7,834 nt of DNA. It comes from a virus (lineage: Duplodnaviria > Heunggongvirae > Uroviricota > Caudoviricetes). The notes under the pieces are model-generated. The model worked only from the letters and a program-made list of their open reading frames with translations, made no database searches and was not told where the DNA came from. The stretch is taken from the IMG/VR virus record IMGVR_UViG_2681813313_000002, one strand, 5' to 3'. A program made the translations under genes and the position numbers. The first letter of the stretch is position 1, and each line of letters begins with the position of its first letter. Positions 1-6,702 of this stretch are shown here, piece after piece.

Positions 1-1208
1 GTGTTGCCGCCGGGCGAGGGTTTGATTTCCGGTGCCTTACCACTGATGAAGGCTGAGGTGCGCCCGGCTGCGTTCAGAATAGCGGTTGCCAGACGATCCG
101 GAATAATGCTCCTGCGCGCCCATGAACTGAAATGTGTCGGGCGGTTTGATGATACCTGGTTTCCATTCGTTCTCGATGCCGCACCGTAATATCCTGATGC
201 CGGAATATCCGGATCTTCTGTCGGCGCGTTAGTGGCGGTATTGACGCCGTTACCGTCTGTCATGAAGGGTACAAAATAAACGCCATCACTCTCCCTGTTT
301 TTGTACGCCCCGTAAATGGTGTTGTACTGCGTGCCGTAGGTGTTTTTCCAGTAATACGTCGTGTCACCACAAATCCACGGCACATTTACAGCACTGCCAC
401 CATGACACTGCGCGTTAAACACAGTGAGGTCAGCACGAAACTGCTTCAGCATGGCTGTAAACAGCGCAGGTTGCTGTGCGTAGGTGGCGGCGCTCATGTC
501 AAACTCTCCCTGCATCCAGCACACCGCCAGCAACACATTTTTCGGGTTCTTCTGTAATGCAGCTTTAGTGCGCGCAATCAGGTCCTGATATAACGGTTTA
601 CCCACACCCCAGCGCGCCGAATCCTGGCTGGCCCCCGCGTCCGCACTGAATGTCCCCTCCGCGCCCTGGGTGAATGCCGAACCACCACGACAGCATGGTA
701 CCAGCAGGATCCCCGCGTTATTCGGGATATACGGAAGCAGTTTTTTGGCAATATGTAAGCCCTGGCCGACACAGCCATACTGCCCTTTGCTCAGGTCTGC
801 CTTCGGATGATTCAGCGTACTCATATCCTGCACATCATGCAGGCAGTGGTCGGCCGGAATAATATCGTTATATCTGCAGGCAGCCCCGCCCGGCGTCACT
901 GTACTGCGGCGCGCCAGCTGTTTAATGCGCGGATCCGGAGCATCGTATGAATCCGGCAGCGGAAGCCCTTCACCGTAAGCCATGGCATTGGACTGCCCGG
1001 CCAGTACGATGACGTAGTACCACTCCGGCTCAGTTGCACCACTGACGACCACATCACCTTCTGCTGCAATCGCCTGCATCAGGGTATAAGGGGTTATGGC
1101 CACCGGACTACCAAACGGCTGCCAGCCCTCTTTCAGTTTATGTGTCAGCTTTTCCGCAAGGTCTGACGGCGACGCCGCCCTGACAACATCATAATGTTTA
1201 ATCGACAT
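1..1208 (-). CDS. nanS: Prophage NanS-p-like sialate (9-O-acetyl-Neu5Ac) O-acetylesterase, N-terminal part; 3' end lies beyond the left window edge
   Basis: Minus-strand frame open from ATG at 1208..1206 to position 1 with no stop. SD GGGAG about 9 nt upstream. Translation begins MSIKHYDVVRAASPSDLAEKLTHKLKEGWQPFGSPVAITPYTLMQAIAAEGD, then the esterase-domain block EWYYVIVLAGQSNAMAYGEGLPLPD...LVPCCRGGSAF...CWMQGEFD...WICGDTTYYWK. This is collinear with E. coli NanS/YjhS as I recall it, including the GQSN motif. The ORF track omits it because its stop is outside the window. Confidence 0.85.
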   Translation of the reverse strand, partial: MSIKHYDVVRAASPSDLAEKLTHKLKEGWQPFGSPVAITPYTLMQAIAAEGDVVVSGATEPEWYYVIVLAGQSNAMAYGEGLPLPDSYDAPDPRIKQLARRSTVTPGGAACRYNDIIPADHCLHDVQDMSTLNHPKADLSKGQYGCVGQGLHIAKKLLPYIPNNAGILLVPCCRGGSAFTQGAEGTFSADAGASQDSARWGVGKPLYQDLIARTKAALQKNPKNVLLAVCWMQGEFDMSAATYAQQPALFTAMLKQFRADLTVFNAQCHGGSAVNVPWICGDTTYYWKNTYGTQYNTIYGAYKNRESDGVYFVPFMTDGNGVNTATNAPTEDPDIPASGYYGAASRTNGNQVSSNRPTHFSSWARRSIIPDRLATAILNAAGRTSAFISGKAPEIKPSPGGN

Positions 1209-1292
1209 CGAATTTCTCCCGTGTACAGGAACAGAGTTAAAAAGCCGGAACCGGAATCAAATTACAGGATGGCCATCTGCCAGTGGCAGGTC

Positions 1293-1321
1293 ATAAAAAA
1301 AAGGCCGCGCCATGCGCAGCC
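1293..1321 (-). terminator. Rho-independent terminator (minus strand) between the cargo region and nanS
   Basis: On the minus strand GGCTGCGCatgGCGCGGCC forms an about 8-bp GC-rich stem with a 3-nt loop, followed directly by TTTTTTTT (plus-strand A-run 1295..1302). On the plus strand the A-run precedes the hairpin, so it is strand-specific. Confidence 0.7.
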
Positions 1322-1507
1322 AGAACTCACAAGGAAAATGATAGAAGGAAATAACATTAGTGATGTACGCATGGCGCCTCCCGCTAAGTTCTGCAATGAT
1401 CAAACAGAACTCGCTACGTGCCCTTAAAACTCGATCATTTAGCCCCTCCAAGGAGGATTCACCATGCGGTTGATTTTTTAATAAACAGTAAACAAAAAAG
1501 TCAAGGA

Positions 1508-1618
1508 TTATTCATTCTGTTTTTTCATCATCGGCCACAGCAATACCACAATGCCGCAGACCAGAGCGCCATCAGTCAGTACCAACATTATCCTGCTGGT
1601 GAAATCCATCATCACCAT
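1508..1618 (-). CDS. Candidate small hydrophobic peptide (36 aa from ATG; up to about 50 aa from an upstream TTG); speculative
   Basis: Minus-strand ORF MVMMDFTSRIMLVLTDGALVCGIVVLLWPMMKKQNE between the membrane-protein gene and the terminator at 1293..1321. No convincing SD. The region is partly low-complexity (CAT/CAC repeats). Confidence 0.2.
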   Translation of the reverse strand: MVMMDFTSRIMLVLTDGALVCGIVVLLWPMMKKQNE

Positions 1619-1751
1619 CACTAAAAGCAGGATCACAACAGCAAGCAGACACAGTTTATAAAACAATGTTCAGAAAACGCATTCAGCATGCCTAAGGTTC
1701 TATTCCTACGAATAGCCAACTTGCAACTTAAAATATTATTTATGCAGCCAA

Positions 1752-2510
1752 TTAAATTCTGGTCCTTACAATATCAACCTGAAGATTCTTATCTTGTGCT
1801 GATTGATAAATGACAAACCTTTTACTACCTGCATTGAAAGAAGTAGACAAAACCAGACAATTATCATAACGAGCAAGAACATAATACCAACCATCATTAT
1901 AATTAATCATTTCATATTCTTTCTTAAACTGTGGTTTGTAATATCCTGTCAGAAATGAAAAAAGCCAGAAATATGCCACAAAAGCAATCATCACAATCTC
2001 AAAAAAATGTTTTTTTATAAATGGCTTATCATAGAAGCATGATACCGATAAAAATCGCCCATAAGATCTTATCGAAATTGTAACCGCCAGCGCAATCGCT
2101 GCTGACAGTAGCAAAAGAGGTACCTGAATCTTCTGTCTCAATATAGAAAACTCAATAATTGCCGGCACAAACAATAATTCCACAGCAAAATAAAGGCGAA
2201 ATACATTTAGCTCTTGCATAGAATGTTTTCTTTTCACTGCGAAAAAGAATACAACACCAATACCCCAACCGATAAGAAATATAGCAATGACGATAACTGC
2301 AAAAAATAAACTTCTGGCAACATCATCAACACCTGCACCTACAATCCACCATGGGAAGCCGTAGTAAAAAGAAGTACCCCATCCATAGAAATAAGCACTC
2401 CCCCATCCAAGGCATCCCATGTAGGCAATAAAAAGTGAAGAACTCCTGAGCAGCGCACCATCCTTCATAACCACCCCAATACAAGATGATAACATTGGCT
2501 TACAACTCAT
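1752..2510 (-). CDS. Polytopic inner-membrane protein of unknown function (about 5 predicted TM helices plus an about 60-aa Tyr/Trp/Asn-rich C-terminal tail); AT-rich cargo gene
   Basis: 252-codon ORF, the only long ORF in the interval. Hydrophobic stretches read from the translation: LFIAYMGCLGWGSAYFYGW, LFFAVIVIAIFLIGWGIGVVFFFAV, LYFAVELLFVPAIIEFSIL, VPLLLLSAAIALAVTISI, FFEIVMIAFVAYFWLFSFL. Marked drop in G+C relative to flanking phage genes. No SD before the ATG at 2510; the in-frame ATG at 2468 (MKDGALL...) is preceded by GGGGTGG, so the true start may be 2468. I do not recognise the family. Confidence 0.6.
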   Translation of the reverse strand: MSCKPMLSSCIGVVMKDGALLRSSSLFIAYMGCLGWGSAYFYGWGTSFYYGFPWWIVGAGVDDVARSLFFAVIVIAIFLIGWGIGVVFFFAVKRKHSMQELNVFRLYFAVELLFVPAIIEFSILRQKIQVPLLLLSAAIALAVTISIRSYGRFLSVSCFYDKPFIKKHFFEIVMIAFVAYFWLFSFLTGYYKPQFKKEYEMINYNDGWYYVLARYDNCLVLSTSFNAGSKRFVIYQSAQDKNLQVDIVRTRI

Positions 2511-2659
2511 AACAAAAGCAATTCAATGCCGTCAAGAGGTTACAGGCTAAAAAAACTCTATTACATTGCAGTCAGCATGTTTACTACACAAATACAATTC
2601 AGAGCATAAAAACTACTCGGCGGCAGGTTATTGAGACTCATCAATGACATGTAAAAAAC

Positions 2660-2705
2660 GCCCATTATTGATGTCAAGTTTCCCCAAAGTTATTCAAAAA
2701 GTCAA
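2660..2705 (-). promoter_or_regulatory. Late promoter pR' with qut / sigma70 pause-inducing element (lambda-like)
   Basis: Minus strand reads ATTGCCACGGATGGCAACATATTAACGGCA-TAATATTGACTTTTTGAATAACTTTGGGGAAACTTGACATCAATAATGGG. This is nearly collinear with the lambda Q-to-pR' interval as I recall it (TTGACT -35, 17-bp spacer, -10 at the TAAATT position, then a -10-like AATAAT element in the initial transcribed region). It starts about 45 bp downstream of the Q stop. Confidence 0.7.
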
Positions 2706-2747
2706 TATTATGCCGTTAATATGTTGCCATCCGTGGCAATCATGGCG

Positions 2748-3371
2748 CTAACGTGTGATCGCATTCAAAATGTTGTCTGCGATTGACTCTTCCTTGTGGC
2801 ATTGCACAACCAGAGCGTCATACAGCGGCTTAACAGTGCGTGACCAGGTGGGTTGGGTAAGGTTTGGGATTAGCATCGTCACAGCGCGATATGCGGCGCT
2901 TGCTGGCATTCTTGAATAACCGACGCCTTTACATCTTCCGCACTCTTTCTCAGCAACTATCCCCCACTGCTCTGTTTTGGCTATATCAACCGCACGGCCT
3001 GTACCGTGGCAATCTCTGCATCTTGCGCCCGGCGTAGCAGCACTACGGCAATAATCCGCATAAGCGAATGTTGCGAGCACTTGCAGTACCTTTGCCTTAG
3101 TATTTCCTTCGAGCTTTGCCACACCACGGTATTTCCCCGATACCTTGTGTGCAAATTGCATCAGATAGTTGATAGCCTTTTGTTTGTCGTTCTGGCTGAG
3201 TTCATGCTTACCGCAGAATGCAGCCATTCCGAATCCGGCTTGTGATTGCGCCATCCCCATAGCAGCCATCACATCAGTACCGGAAAGAGAGTCAGAAGCC
3301 GTAGCCCGTGGTGAGTCGCTCATCATCGGGCTTTTTGGCGAATGAAATTTAGCTACGCTTTCGAGTCTCAT
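2748..3371 (-). CDS. Q: Late-gene antiterminator Q (lambda-type Q)
   Basis: 207 aa. Translation MRLESVAKFHSPKSPMMSDSPRATASDS...CRDCHGTGRAVD...CGRCKGVGYSRMPASAAYRAV... matches lambda Q almost residue for residue from memory, including the Cys-rich zinc-binding motifs. ATGA overlap with ninH upstream. pR'/qut follows. Confidence 0.93.
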   Translation of the reverse strand: MRLESVAKFHSPKSPMMSDSPRATASDSLSGTDVMAAMGMAQSQAGFGMAAFCGKHELSQNDKQKAINYLMQFAHKVSGKYRGVAKLEGNTKAKVLQVLATFAYADYCRSAATPGARCRDCHGTGRAVDIAKTEQWGIVAEKECGRCKGVGYSRMPASAAYRAVTMLIPNLTQPTWSRTVKPLYDALVVQCHKEESIADNILNAITR

Positions 3372-3556
3372 CGTCTTCCCTTTTTGCCTGGCGTTACCAT
3401 CAGGACGCCGTTAACTATTACGTGACGCTCACCTTTGCTGTCTCGGTTGTACTTGAGCACTGTTCCTCTTGCGCAGGAAAGTATCCTTGCCACTTCGGTC
3501 TGATTACCTCGTGTCTGGATAAGAAGCTCTGGTATCGTTTGAATTGTGGCGTTCAT
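3368..3556 (-). CDS. ninH: NinH-like small DNA-binding protein
   Basis: 62 aa. IQTIPELLIQTRGNQTEVARILSCARGTVLKYNRDSKGERHVIVNGVLMV is collinear with lambda NinH (…KTIPDMLVEAYGNQTEVARRLKCSRGTVRKY…AIVNDVLMV). Start overlaps the rusA stop (ATGA). Confidence 0.85.
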   Translation of the reverse strand: MNATIQTIPELLIQTRGNQTEVARILSCARGTVLKYNRDSKGERHVIVNGVLMVTPGKKGRR

Positions 3557-3915
3557 ACGTTCTCCAGTTCGGTGATTTTTATTCCAAGCCGTCCGCCTGG
3601 TACTTTCACACCACGAATTACGCGAATGTCATCGAATTGCTCGTCGTCTTCCGCAAATCCGGCGTGGATAAGGGAGTCGAGTAAACCTTTCAGGATGTTA
3701 TCGAGGTCGCGGCGGCGGGAGTCTGGAACGTCTGCTATGACTTTGATGCGGAGTCGTGATTTGGTGAAAATATCTAACTTGAGTTGGTGGATGATTTGCT
3801 GAACGTCTTTTCGGTATTTCTGGCCTTTATCGCTGATGTAGTATTGGCTTCCCCGTCTTCGCCAGTAGGTATTCACCGACGGCGGGTATGGAAGCACAAA
3901 CTGATATTCGTTCAT
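3553..3915 (-). CDS. rusA: Holliday-junction resolvase RusA
   Basis: 120 aa. LPYPPSVNTYWRRRG, DVPDSRRRDLDNILKGLLDSLIHAGF and PGGRLGIKITE match the RusA family (E. coli RusA has …LPWPPSNNRYY…PDRRRRDLDNLQKA…KGGRL…). Coupled by ATGA overlap to the upstream gene. Confidence 0.9.
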   Translation of the reverse strand: MNEYQFVLPYPPSVNTYWRRRGSQYYISDKGQKYRKDVQQIIHQLKLDIFTKSRLRIKVIADVPDSRRRDLDNILKGLLDSLIHAGFAEDDEQFDDIRVIRGVKVPGGRLGIKITELENV

Positions 3916-4202
3916 GACTTAATCTTCCCCTCCTTCAGCAGTATCGCCTGCGTCCTGATTACGCCTTCGAGGTGGTAAAGTCTGGCGTCTTTGTTGTCGA
4001 GATTATGGGTGCGTCTGTCGATTTCATCGTGACACGCGCTACAAGCCCATGCGCCGATCAGGTCTTCAGGCTTCATTCCAGTTCCGCAAATTCCAGCCAT
4101 CCGGTAATGTGCCAGAACTGTAGTTTCAGGATTGCCATTGCATATGCCGTAAATACGAACCTGGCATTCTCTGCCGCGTGCTTCTTTGCGTAGGTTAGCC
4201 AT
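3912..4202 (-). CDS. ybcO: YbcO-like DUF1364 family protein (putative Zn-binding nuclease of the nin region)
   Basis: 96 aa with the cysteine pattern CQVR…CNGNPETTVLAH…CGTGMKP…CSACHDEIDRRTH, as remembered for DLP12 YbcO. Start and upstream stop overlap as TAATG. Confidence 0.7.
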   Translation of the reverse strand: MANLRKEARGRECQVRIYGICNGNPETTVLAHYRMAGICGTGMKPEDLIGAWACSACHDEIDRRTHNLDNKDARLYHLEGVIRTQAILLKEGKIKS

Positions 4203-4909
4203 TAAGCAGCCTCCCCTGTTACTTTCAGCATTCCGTTATCGAGCAGCTTTCTGGTCAGCCACTGTTGACCACGCCCGGTGATTTTTGTGGTGAACGATAT
4301 CTGTATTCCGTGATTTGTGTTGACCGCTGTTTCTTTCACTGTGAAATAGCCGCGCTCCATATATTCCTGCATTGGCACATTTCGCCGGGAACCTGAAGCA
4401 ATAAGGATTTTGTGATCACGCATCCACGCAAACAGTTTGTTTGGACCAATACCAACAACCTTTGCATAGTTTCCAATCAAAATTCCGCTGGCCTCGCCAA
4501 CGCGATCGGCAAACTCAACTTTAGGTGCGGCAATTGCGAGCTGGTTTTCTAGTTGCATTTTCTGCTCAGCAAGATCAGCAGCAAGGCGTAACGCTTCTGG
4601 TAGCGTTTTTGGGATATTAACCGCAGCTTCTTCAAGCTCTCGCCAACGGTCAACAAGACGAGCGGTGAATTCCGGCGACAACTGGGCAACGACAATAATG
4701 CTGTCGCGCTTACCTTGTTCTCCTTCGAAGATGTAATAGCTTACCGGTCGGCCTGCGGTGGGCTTCTCCCCCATTGGGGGAAAAGCTATTACACCTCGTC
4801 CCGCCAGTCGTTCAATAGATTGTTTCACCTTGTCATGACGACTTCCCACCAACTCAGCGATTTCAATGCTGGTCATTTTGATGGCGTTGCTATTTATCAG
4901 CTCATTCAT
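4202..4909 (-). CDS. roi: Roi-like phage regulatory protein / antirepressor (Rha-type N-terminal domain + KilA-C/ANT C-terminal domain)
   Basis: N-terminus IKMTSIEIAELVGSRHDKVKQSIERL resembles the Rha/pRha family. C-terminal half (…YAKVVGIGPNKLFAWMRDHKIL…GYF…) resembles the KilA-C/ANT domain. Position between ninB and Q matches roi in HK022-like phages. The ORF starts at 4915, but GAGAGG sits 8 nt before the second ATG at 4909, which is the more likely start. Confidence 0.7.
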   Translation of the reverse strand: MNELINSNAIKMTSIEIAELVGSRHDKVKQSIERLAGRGVIAFPPMGEKPTAGRPVSYYIFEGEQGKRDSIIVVAQLSPEFTARLVDRWRELEEAAVNIPKTLPEALRLAADLAEQKMQLENQLAIAAPKVEFADRVGEASGILIGNYAKVVGIGPNKLFAWMRDHKILIASGSRRNVPMQEYMERGYFTVKETAVNTNHGIQISFTTKITGRGQQWLTRKLLDNGMLKVTGEAA

Positions 4910-4942
4910 TGTCATGTCCTCTCATATTGAAAATTCAGCAAT

Positions 4943-4970
4943 AAAAAACCCAGCCGAAGCTGGGTTTGTT
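4943..4970 (-). terminator. Rho-independent terminator (hairpin with U-tract on the minus strand; weaker in the plus direction)
   Basis: CCCAGC-cgaa-GCTGGG stem at 4949..4964, flanked by an A-run (4943..4948) on one side and TTTGTT on the other. Lies between the 355-aa gene and the roi-like gene. Confidence 0.6.
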
Positions 4971-5032
4971 AAGTTGTCAATGGTCAGTAGTAATGCAGTG
5001 AAGGAGGTAAACTTACGCTGAAGGATTTGTAC

Positions 5033-5055
5033 AAAAAAACCACCTGAAGGTGGGT
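5033..5055 (-). terminator. Rho-independent terminator immediately 3' of the 355-aa gene
   Basis: Minus strand: CCACC-ttca-GGTGG hairpin followed by TTTTTTT, beginning 6 nt after the stop codon at 5061..5063. Confidence 0.65.
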
Positions 5056-5060
5056 TACTG

Positions 5061-6074
5061 TTACTTGTCTGAATCATCCAGTTCGTCTGTTTTCACATCC
5101 TCAAACCTTGGATGCAGGCGATTCATTTTTGCAATAAAATCTGAATAGTCGTTAGATAGCTTCATAATCGTAACGGTTGATGACAGATGCTCTCTTAATT
5201 TTTGATATCCAATATTTGGCGTCAGCCCCTGAAACAACTTTGTACCTTTTGAGGCCTTTACGTTCTGCTTTTTAAGCTCCTCAAGGATGTTTGGTGCCAA
5301 TCTCTTGTAGACGATATCATTTGTCAAAACGCCAAAATACTGAGGCCGGAAGCGGGGATTTTCCGGCGGGTATTCTAAGCCCCTTAACCTGAAAAGCTCT
5401 TCATAATAATCAGCAGGAAATGTTGTAATATAAGGTTGAATTTCCTTTGCGACAAAGGCCTCGAGTATTTTGGCGAGCGCATCTTTTTCTCTATCTCGCT
5501 GGTACCCCGTCGCTTCATCAACAAGCGCTATTATTCCGACTTTAGCTAATGAGCGCACCAGAATTTCAGCTTTCTTGGCTGTCTCTAACTGGTTTGGCCT
5601 GGTGATAGCGCCTGCCTCTCTTGCCTTTAAATAAACATCGCAGACAAGAGGTATTATGGATGCGTCATAACCTTCCTGGACGGAGCCAGTAATCGTCTTG
5701 TATTTGACCTTATTGATCACATCCATAACATCTTGATTTATATATTTTTTAAGGTTTGCAGCATCCATAAAAGCGGGCATATTGATCACCCCCTCTTCTT
5801 GAGGTGCTCTACCCCCTCTTTGTGGTCGGCCAAATGCTTTAAAAACAGAAGCTTGTGATATGATACGCCGTCCATTTTCGAGAACCGCGACATCTAATTC
5901 CGCATCACCGATCTTTAACTTTCCCTCATTCGCAGATACGGGCAATAAAGCTTTTTCTTTTTTTGCGGCAACAGCCTTTCTTGAGGATTCTTTTCTTTGC
6001 TCTGCTGTCATTTTTGCCGCGCGTGCCTTACCGCCTTTGGCCTTCCCACTAACATCATCATTTTTCATGAGCAT
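5061..6074 (-). CDS. Phage cargo protein, tentatively P63C-domain family, with a Lys/Ala-rich basic N-terminal tail; function unknown
   Basis: Long ORF whose body (…GRRIISQASVFKAFGRPQRGG…GIIALVDEATGYQRDRE…) recalls P63C-domain phage proteins; this is from memory, not a search. N-terminus KAKGGKARAAKMTAEQRKESSRKAVAAKKEKA is strongly basic. The ORF-track start at 6128 is rejected because 6100..6128 is a promoter/operator; translation probably starts at ATG 6074 (MLMKNDD) or 6068 (MKNDD). Confidence 0.6.
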   Translation of the reverse strand: MLMKNDDVSGKAKGGKARAAKMTAEQRKESSRKAVAAKKEKALLPVSANEGKLKIGDAELDVAVLENGRRIISQASVFKAFGRPQRGGRAPQEEGVINMPAFMDAANLKKYINQDVMDVINKVKYKTITGSVQEGYDASIIPLVCDVYLKAREAGAITRPNQLETAKKAEILVRSLAKVGIIALVDEATGYQRDREKDALAKILEAFVAKEIQPYITTFPADYYEELFRLRGLEYPPENPRFRPQYFGVLTNDIVYKRLAPNILEELKKQNVKASKGTKLFQGLTPNIGYQKLREHLSSTVTIMKLSNDYSDFIAKMNRLHPRFEDVKTDELDDSDK

Positions 6075-6099
6075 ATCTCGTGTTGTGATTGATAAGTCA

Positions 6100-6145
6100 A
6101 TCATACACATGCACGTTGTAACGTGCAATATTTAAATATGCACGT
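6100..6145 (-). promoter_or_regulatory. Sigma70-type promoter (TTGCAC-17 bp-TATGAT) overlapped by three copies of a 7-bp TGCACGT/ACGTGCA operator-like motif
   Basis: Minus strand: -35 TTGCAC (plus 6128..6123), a 17-bp spacer, -10 TATGAT (plus 6105..6100). TGCACGT occurs at 6110..6116 and 6139..6145 and its reverse complement ACGTGCA at 6121..6127. Sites 1 and 2 form a perfect 8-bp-arm inverted repeat, TGCACGTT-gt-AACGTGCA, covering the -35 and spacer. Confidence 0.55.
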
Positions 6146-6291: not shown

Positions 6292-6702
6292 TCATTCGTA
6301 CCTCCTGTCGGTAAATCTGACACCCTGACCAATAGCCCAGGCTGTTGTGTACTCGATCAGACTTGCCATACGCTTCACGCTCATCTGCGCGCTGCTTTCG
6401 CGAATGTTGACGTATTCGCCTTCAAGCCCGGGCAAAACATCAGCTTCCTGCTTTGTTGCCACTGCATGACCGCTAATCAACAAAACCTTCCATTGTTCTG
6501 GTTTTAACCACTTATCGCACCATTGAACCTGACGTGCGATATCCGCCAGCATCGCGTGAAATTTTGCGTTCTGGTCAAGGTTGCGCTTGTAGTCAGTAAT
6601 GCGGATGGTGACTGGCTTGTCTTTATCGAGAGGAGTTGCGAGGATGGCGTTGATTGCGGCTTGCTGTTGTTGCTTAGTTCGGAGGAAGATTGTTTGCTTC
6701 AT
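6292..6702 (-). CDS. ninB: NinB (Orf-family recombination mediator)
   Basis: 136 aa. Architecture MK…QQQAAINAI…[33 protein letters not shown]…WLKPEQWK… parallels lambda NinB (…RSLDQNRKLWACLGDVSRQVEWHGRWLDAESWK…). AAGGAG SD 7 nt upstream of the ATG. Confidence 0.85.

Follow-up and report, generated by a model that had tools for sequence, protein, structure and literature searches.

A lambda-type late promoter with a decayed terminator upstream of a membrane-protein and small-RNA cassette in Escherichia coli prophages

Organization of the locus

The viral DNA considered here, IMG/VR record IMGVR_UViG_2681813313_000002 (Caudoviricetes), is a stretch of 7,834 nucleotides (nt), hereafter the window, whose late-region genes all lie on the minus strand in the layout of a lambda-type nin and late region. 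Identity to the window reaches 100% among E. coli prophages and is 99.7% for prophage PP4 of enteropathogenic E. coli (EPEC) E2348/69 and 98.6% for phage 2B8. Downstream of the gene for antiterminator Q lies a predicted late promoter, pR', followed by a cassette that encodes two membrane proteins and the small RNA (sRNA) PasD. The subject of this report is the leader that joins the promoter to the cassette, where a canonical intrinsic terminator corresponding to the tR' of phage lambda is missing, and what that absence may mean for transcription of the cassette in a lysogen. The features on which the argument rests are as follows, in the direction of transcription.

2748..3371, minus strand: gene for a lambda-type antiterminator Q of 207 amino acids (aa) (Pfam PF03589 Antiterm, 1.2e-57; PHROG 127, Q-like)
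2661..2705, minus strand: putative late promoter pR' with qut, recognized by alignment with lambda, HK97, P22, HK620 and epsilon34
2608..2626, minus strand: decayed terminator relic, a 4-bp hairpin and U5, homologous to a t82-like terminator and lying about +44 to +62 from the start site
2486..2515, minus strand: promoter-like site upstream of the cargo gene, TTGTTA-18 nt-TATCAT with an extended -10 TG, predicted start at about 2480
1752..2468, minus strand: cargo gene, encoding a 238-aa polytopic membrane protein ('STM1630 family' in the Prokaryotic Genome Annotation Pipeline, PGAP; PHROG 1521, 1.7e-154)
2366..2401, minus strand: borderline, wobble-rich hairpin with UUUUU, about 70-100 nt into the cargo open reading frame (ORF)
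1508..1666, minus strand: gene for a DUF3927 ('TciB-like') membrane peptide of 52 aa (PF13064, 1.4e-14; PHROG 1470, 1.2e-17)
1475..1504, minus strand: promoter-like site for PasD, TTGACT (1504..1499)-18 nt-TAAAAA (1480..1475)
1295..1467, minus strand: gene for the STnc100-like sRNA PasD, identical to E2348/69 PasD1 (NC_011601, 1060260-1060432)
1..1208, minus strand: 5' part of nanS-p (DUF1737 and SASA sialate O-acetylesterase domains; PF08410, 2.1e-15; PF03629, 5.5e-13), which runs off the window

The late promoter and the leader that follows it

The 3' end of Q and the adjoining promoter region align with those of lambda, HK97 and P22. The Q protein belongs to the lambda-type family, and, at the level of sequence, the promoter has the expected parts of such a module, namely a -35 element TTGACT (2705..2700), a 17-nt spacer resembling a Q-binding element (QBE), a -10 element GAAACT (2682..2677), a start site at about 2670/2669 and, at +1 to +6, a -10-like pause element AATAAT (2669..2664) followed by GGG (2663..2661). 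This Q family recurs in the late modules of lambda, HK97, P22 and HK022, as do the -35 hexamer, a QBE-like spacer of 17 nt and, just past the start site, a pause element that resembles a -10 and is followed by GGG. Variant bases are found in the -10 element (GAAACT, elsewhere TAAATT), the pause element (AATAAT, elsewhere AACGAT) and the QBE (two changes), and the -10 element, which retains three of six consensus positions, is further from consensus than those of lambda, HK97 and P22. Position 2671, at -1/+1 of pR', is T in the window and C in phage 2B8, in E2348/69 PP4 and in almost all of 572 related genomes; only three genomes are identical to the window at 100%. By homology, and since phage 2B8 carries the same element, pR' is probably active and constitutive here. 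That lambda-type pR' promoters are constitutively active in lysogens is established (restated in PMC7547250).

A consensus terminator scan of the whole window returned 16 sites (7.9 +/- 3.3 in shuffled sequences), none of which falls on the minus strand between 2704 and 2469. A relaxed scan for hairpins with U-tracts over 2720..1250, scored with a d'Aubenton-Carafa-type d-score, gave one positive site, a stem at 1321..1303 followed by U8 (folding free energy, dG, -14.0; d +62), which the consensus scan also called (GGCTGCGCATGGCGCGGCC + T8). No site with d > 0 precedes +1367 from pR', and the first strong terminator lies at about +1375. With the same scripts, known or annotated terminators scored positive, including those of phage 434 (+42), E2348/69 prophage PP2 (+32), lambda tR' (+28), and HK97, P22, HK022, HK620 and HK140 (+19 to +39), and the method therefore detects real tR' sites. 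The claim of the first-pass annotation that no credible intrinsic terminator separates pR' and qut (2705..2661) from the cargo start codon at 2468 is thus borne out by both scans, and the computational prediction that it had proposed for this leader, once run, yielded no canonical terminator. A tR', understood as an intrinsic terminator some 50-260 nt from pR' that gives rise to a short constitutive RNA, was not found in the window. This absence is unusual among lambda-type modules, as in six of the seven others a strong terminator is predicted at +53 to +187 (about +187 in lambda, +53/54 in HK97, P22, HK022, HK620 and HK140), and the seventh, in epsilon34, keeps the hairpin with a weakened U-tract.

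Other potential stops in the leader were also considered. The inverted repeat TGACAT/ATGTCA with a 20-nt gap, described at the outset as the only one between pR' and the cargo gene, is real (2676..2671 and 2650..2645), but it is accompanied by a second, CATCAAT/ATTGATG, with a 21-nt gap; both repeats need the T at 2671, a rare allele. No known RNA element was detected in the leader (2469..2704) by Rfam at E <= 1. The 200-nt leader is C-poor, with about 15% C, a C/G ratio below 1 in all windows and no rut-like region, and this composition makes a Rho-dependent stop unlikely, although composition alone cannot exclude one.

The missing terminator underlies the earlier reading of the locus, whereby the cargo gene may lie inside the constitutive pR' transcript and be expressed in the lysogen. 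Extended to the whole cassette, this reading would have the cargo gene, the DUF3927 gene and PasD expressed mainly from a late promoter co-opted for lysogenic conversion, with PasD set free as the 3' part of a 1.37-kb RNA. The constitutive nature of lambda-type pR', the lack of a terminator before the cargo gene and a leader without rut-like composition all speak for it; the divergence of the -10 element from consensus speaks against it.

A decayed terminator downstream of pR'

The same cassette is found in phage 434, in E2348/69 PP2 and in prophage Sp3 of enterohaemorrhagic E. coli (EHEC) Sakai, with 98-100% identity from window position 2564 downstream (including nanS-p in 434 and PP2). The arrangement upstream of this point differs from that of the window, consisting in the phage 434 type of a Q82-like Q, a phage-82-like promoter and an intact terminator about 46 nt after the start (d +32 to +42). 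The window retains what appears to be a remnant of this terminator. Its hairpin, CUGCCGCCGAGUAG (2626..2613), has a 6-nt loop and a CUGC/GUAG stem of two G-C pairs, one A-U pair and one G-U pair (dG -1.2; d -18.7), followed by UUUUU at 2612..2608, and falls short of the stable GC-rich hairpin and U-tract of an intrinsic terminator. Position for position, it is the homologue of the t82-like ACCCGCUGCCGAGUGGG + U7-9 of phage 434, PP2 and Sp3; at the homologous positions of phage 434, ACCCGCUGCCGAGUGGG + U8 was annotated as a terminator by the depositors, and the terminators of PP2 and Sp3 show small differences from it. Hairpin stability declines from a dG of -8.5 in 434 to -5.2 in PP2, to about -3 in an intermediate form in Escherichia albertii, and to -1.2 in the window, and the U-tract shortens from 7-9 in intact copies to 5. 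The 41 nt around the relic fold no better than shuffled sequence (z -0.31, with 67 of 200 shuffles as good), as against z -4.31 for the 434 stretch. Given its weak folding energy, short U-tract and unexceptional fold, the element is therefore a decayed rather than a working terminator, and the alignment identifies it as what is left of the strong terminator found ahead of the cassette in phage 434 and in 618 E. coli genomes. In the recombinant genome Z1323CEC0011, the haplotype switches from lambda-type to 434-type directly after the U-tract of the relic, which is therefore linked to the lambda-type promoter.

It can still be asked whether loss of the terminator has any consequence, as pR' RNA might stop at the relic, at the hairpin inside the cargo gene or by the action of Rho, or pR' might be too weak for read-through to affect expression. 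The relic does keep U5 and a stem of 4 bp in which, compared with 434, one pair has changed in a compensatory way from C-G to U-A, and the pR' -10 element matches consensus at only half of its positions. Against this, the scores of the relic are indistinguishable from those of random sequence, the C-poor leader disfavours Rho loading, and the promoter presumably must work for the late genes of its carrier, phage 2B8.

The cassette and the PasD sRNA

The cassette is distinguished from its surroundings by a GC content of 32-39%, compared with 50-59% in the flanks, and represents extra DNA between Q and the nanS-p and lysis genes that is absent from lambda, HK97 and P22. RefSeq and EcoCyc give E2348C_1012 the same start as that taken here for the cargo gene, and the gene differs from that of phage 2B8 by seven synonymous and five conservative changes. 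Its product has about four hydrophobic or transmembrane segments and no match in Pfam, NCBIfam, PADLOC or the PDB. The DUF3927 gene, annotated in RefSeq and in the phage 434 record, sits between the cargo gene and PasD. Literature on STM1630 and DUF3927 was uninformative on function, and literature matches to 'TciB' were to unrelated subjects only.

The hairpin inside the cargo ORF (2401..2366) is identical in the lambda-type and 434-type arrangements. It has a dG of -8.6 to -12, a d-score of -4.1 and a z-score of -2.55 (4 of 200 shuffles as good), and in E. albertii and Escherichia sp. MOD1-EC7003 it is strengthened by a synonymous U-to-C change that converts a G-U to a G-C pair. It may be a translation-coupled attenuator. 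The z-score and the strengthening in divergent copies would suit an early stop for pR' RNA; the richness in G-U pairs and the location in translated sequence would not.

Immediately upstream of the cargo gene, a promoter scan made the same promoter-like call in the window, PP4, 434 and a MOD1-EC7003 prophage remnant, and the block 2564..2469 is 100% identical across five loci. Overlapping the promoter-like -35 element is TTGTtatgagTTGT (2515..2502, minus strand), which fits the CII-box consensus TTGY-N6-TTGY. The spacing from this candidate box to the -10 element looks shorter than in lambda pRE. In the entry for phage 434, the homologue of this site is labelled a CII binding site, raising the idea of a cargo promoter that is activated by CII when lysogeny is established.

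At the other end of the cassette, alignment of 1467..1295 with PasD1 shows no differences, including the seed UGUGAG (1332..1327) and the terminator, which consists of the stem at 1321..1303 and U8 at 1302..1295 and has a fold z-score of -3.11 in addition to its d-score of +62. PasD1, an Hfq-associated sRNA, has been validated by Northern blot and by RIL-seq (ligation and sequencing of interacting RNAs; PMC8550237, table S6). The terminator that the first-pass annotation placed at 1293..1321 is therefore that of the PasD gene; it is indeed the first strong one and lies after the cargo gene, but it is the 3' end of an sRNA and not a dedicated terminator of the late operon. The Rfam family STnc100 (RF02076) matches 1497..1292 with 37.7 bits (E 1.5e-5), short of the gathering score of 47, and a common origin of PasD and STnc100 has been proposed (bioRxiv 10.64898/2026.05.13.724894). 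The promoter-like site upstream of PasD is at the right distance from the 5' end of PasD1 at 1467, as estimated by RNA-seq, and is kept in E. albertii and MOD1-EC7003 although the sRNA body differs.

Two ORFs of 64 aa and 44 aa overlap PasD, one of them labelled 'membrane protein' in the 434 record; they were rejected as the primary product because the region corresponds to a validated sRNA. Also inside PasD, on the minus strand, GGGAGG (1382..1377) makes a strong Shine-Dalgarno sequence and is separated by 4 nt from an ATG at 1372. This ATG opens a 36-codon frame, MRTSLMLFPSIIFLVSSGC..., that resembles a signal or lipoprotein leader, crosses the PasD terminator and stops only at 1262, so that the terminated sRNA carries no stop codon for it. 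In EDL933, Ribo-seq assigned the homologous STnc100_1 a high ribosome coverage value (RCV) of 2.16 (PMC5331693). Its translation might be confined to read-through RNA made under antitermination by Q.

Distribution of the cassette

A survey of 5426 complete E. coli genomes located the cassette at 1211 places, spread over 683 genomes. Essentially every copy lies behind one of two junctions, many genomes carrying both. The lambda-type pR' with the relic is found at 591 places in 572 of the 5426 genomes (545-547 at >=99% identity), and the Q82-type junction with a terminator at 633 places in 618 genomes; each of the two types is >=99% uniform. The terminator-less lambda-type junction is thus present in about one-tenth of complete genomes, mostly of EHEC and EPEC lineages, including O157, O26, O111, O145 and EPEC E2348/69. 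The cargo is much rarer among phage records, where tblastn against 50,697 entries found it in only three, of phages 434 and 2B8. A lambda-type copy was looked for and not found in Sakai prophage Sp4; the Sp3 copy is Q82-type. A 3-kb contig from a Veillonella sp. metagenome-assembled genome includes the end of an E. coli lambda-type Q, pR', the relic and a cargo gene whose protein is 100% identical, and is almost certainly a binning contaminant.

The fixed and nearly invariant junction in 572 genomes speaks for expression of the cassette from pR'. A divergent copy in Escherichia sp. MOD1-EC7003 points in another direction. There, next to bioA, a prophage remnant without Q or pR' has kept only the cargo gene (full-length ORF, 94% identity), a broken DUF3927 gene, an STnc100-type sRNA with an intact PasD-type terminator, and the first codons of nanS-p. 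Homology to the window starts about 110 nt upstream of the cargo ATG; within this stretch, TTGACGGCATTGAATTGCTTTTGTTATGAGTTG and ATGTTATCATCTTGT, the blocks of the -35 and of the extended -10, show no change, and the spacer between them and the 5' untranslated region vary. This pattern suggests that the cargo gene and sRNA were retained after decay of the phage. Survival of the cassette in a remnant that lacks pR', and conservation in divergent copies of the promoter-like blocks before the cargo gene and PasD, speak against dependence on a pR' transcript.

Expression without induction and the source of cassette transcripts

E2348/69 carries both junction types, and published RNA-seq of the uninduced strain (DESeq2 baseMean; PMC8550237, table S2) gives the following values.

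PP4 (lambda-type, no tR'): Q 6.0; cargo gene 147; DUF3927 gene not tabulated; PasD1 8652; nanS absent; holin 5.4
PP2 (Q82-type, tR' present): Q 69; cargo gene 226; DUF3927 gene 36.7; PasD2 11017; nanS 102; holin 3.5

The cargo gene of PP4 is transcribed in the uninduced lysogen (147, against 6.0 for Q and 5.4 for the holin), as had been anticipated, and is not silent without induction. The low holin value agrees with the accompanying expectation that the lysis genes stay shut off; two terminators, that of PasD and another ahead of the holin gene, insulate them well. The PP4 profile fits an RNA that starts after Q and ends before the holin gene, as a pR' transcript would. Nothing shows, however, that cargo expression comes from pR', and this part of the first-pass annotation finds no support, as the per-copy values, though suggestive only, are as high or higher for the PP2 copy, which lies behind an intact terminator (226 for the cargo gene, 11017 for PasD2). 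EHEC Sakai provides a parallel. There, ECs0816-ECs0818 is the top-ranked Hfq-bound intergenic region and contains EcOnc13, of about 187 nt (Tree 2014 supplement), the PasD homologue of the Sp3 copy and likewise behind an intact terminator. It is therefore unlikely, in our judgement, that the cassette depends mainly on a pR' transcript from whose 3' end PasD is released. That PP4 expression is no higher than that of PP2 also suits an early stop or a feeble pR', an explanation that the relic's random-like scores and the carriage of pR' by phage 2B8 make improbable.

The explanation that we consider probable, with moderate confidence, is that the cassette is a self-contained moron with its own promoters, situated in the slot between Q and the lysis genes after a decayed tR', and that pR' read-through is an extra. 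The moron would span 2564..1295 and comprise, in order, a promoter-like element, the cargo gene, the DUF3927 gene, a second promoter-like element, and PasD with its terminator. Upstream, Q, pR' and qut appear intact, and the terminator that follows them has apparently decayed to the 4-bp, U5 relic. Without Q, RNA polymerase leaving pR' would then travel about 1.37 kb before reaching a canonical intrinsic stop, that of PasD, which would therefore serve as a de facto tR' and, with other terminators beyond it, keep the lysis genes dependent on Q. Comparative and expression data suggest that most transcription of the cassette in the lysogen starts at its own promoters, with read-through from pR' a possible contribution but probably not the main driver.

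Several findings speak for this explanation. In addition to the deviant composition of the cassette, its own terminator is evident in the EPEC reads, which fall from 8652 at PasD1 to 5.4 at the holin gene, and its own promoter is suggested by a predicted TTGTTA-18-TGnTATCAT in all contexts, including the remnant without pR', and by expression of the cassette behind an intact tR'. The promoter footprint, low GC content and own terminator fit the classical definition of a moron, in the sense of Juhala and Hendrix. Other points weigh against it. Both cassette promoters are predictions, and promoter-like hits were not enriched over shuffled sequences. The PasD -10 element is non-consensus and lacks the -7 T, so that the PasD 5' end could arise by processing of a longer transcript; the AU-rich sequence before that end is also compatible with processing, as the pR'-transcript account would have it. 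Transcripts that are not translated might end at the hairpin at 2401..2366. The cargo genes of PP2 and PP4 are only three SNPs (single-nucleotide polymorphisms) apart and have the same protein product, and the read-mapping rule is not stated, so that multi-mapping may blur the per-copy values and leave them suggestive only. Finally, the PP2 terminator is only moderately strong (dG -5.2), and leakage from pR'82 could feed the PP2 copy.

A bolder proposal can be built on the same facts, and is possible, if tentative. In about one-tenth of complete E. coli genomes, constitutive transcription from the tR'-less late promoter would give the lysogen a 1.37-kb RNA with coding sequences for two membrane proteins and PasD at its 3' end. 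The promoter would thereby double as one for lysogenic conversion, the abundant and virulence-associated PasD1 would in part be the 3' product of a late transcript, and the PasD terminator would serve as the Q-controlled gate of the lytic switch.

A further observation concerns nanS-p of PP2 (E2348C_0688), which reads 102 without induction although it lies downstream of the PasD2 terminator, with the holin gene at 3.5. The signal reflects either about 1% read-through of the terminator or a promoter of nanS-p itself.

Comparison with other prophage late regions

One parallel is with the stx morons, which occupy the same slot between Q and pR' on one side and nanS-p and the lysis genes on the other, with an sRNA of the STnc100 family just 3' of the cargo; STnc100 lies 75 nt downstream of stx2B (PMC12370729). 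The stx phages differ in that stx lies behind a functional tR', at 258 nt from pR', and in that the short RNA ending there is itself an sRNA, StxS; no short pR' RNA is predicted for the window. The contrast drawn by the first-pass annotation, of a cargo in front of the first terminator as opposed to stx behind tR', holds for the lambda-type lineage only; about half of the copies of this cargo are located behind a tR'.

The sRNA itself is known as PasD1 and PasD2 in EPEC and as EcOnc13 in EHEC. Published work presents PasD as a prophage sRNA that is encoded between genes and has a link to those for Q and LpxR; in the text consulted, no discussion of its terminator as the first stop after pR' was found. 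A precedent for RNAs and ORFs expressed from an antitermination-controlled, late-type prophage promoter is the orf45-anrP-isrK locus of Salmonella prophage Gifsy-1 (cited in PMC7547250), although the sequences and mechanism of IsrK differ from those of the window locus. All of the parts are thus known, and what appears to be undescribed in the searchable literature is their combination, a lambda-type late switch without tR' whose first gate is an sRNA terminator.

Neighbouring genes and a second moron-like unit

The remaining genes of the window lie upstream of Q and are listed in the direction of transcription.

6702..6292, minus strand: NinB gene
6128..5061, minus strand: P63C-domain gene with flanking terminators (PF10546, 9e-24; probable ATG at 6068)
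4915..4202, minus strand: KilAC antirepressor gene
4202..3912, minus strand: YbcO gene
3915..3553, minus strand: RusA gene
between the RusA and Q genes, minus strand: ORF of 62 aa

The P63C-domain gene forms what looks like a second moron-like unit, in the nin region (6145..6110 and 6128..4946, minus strand). Upstream of the gene, the half-site ACGTGCA/TGCACGT occurs three times, including in the palindrome TGCACGTT-AC-AACGTGCA at 6127..6110. Two terminator-like hairpins, at 5053..5040 and 4967..4946, lie downstream of it.

Implications for the late switch

The terminator-less locus is a real but modest variant of the lambdoid late region. The textbook late switch relies on a terminator right after pR', and in this widespread lineage that terminator is decayed; the terminator of an abundant Hfq-binding sRNA is now the first barrier before the lysis genes. 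If read-through from pR' is insignificant, the cassette is a well-documented moron with its own promoters, and loss of the phage terminator has been tolerated because the moron supplies a replacement. If read-through is significant, the arrangement would couple a constitutive phage promoter to two uncharacterised membrane proteins and a virulence-associated sRNA in pathogenic E. coli, and mutations in the PasD terminator would affect prophage stability.

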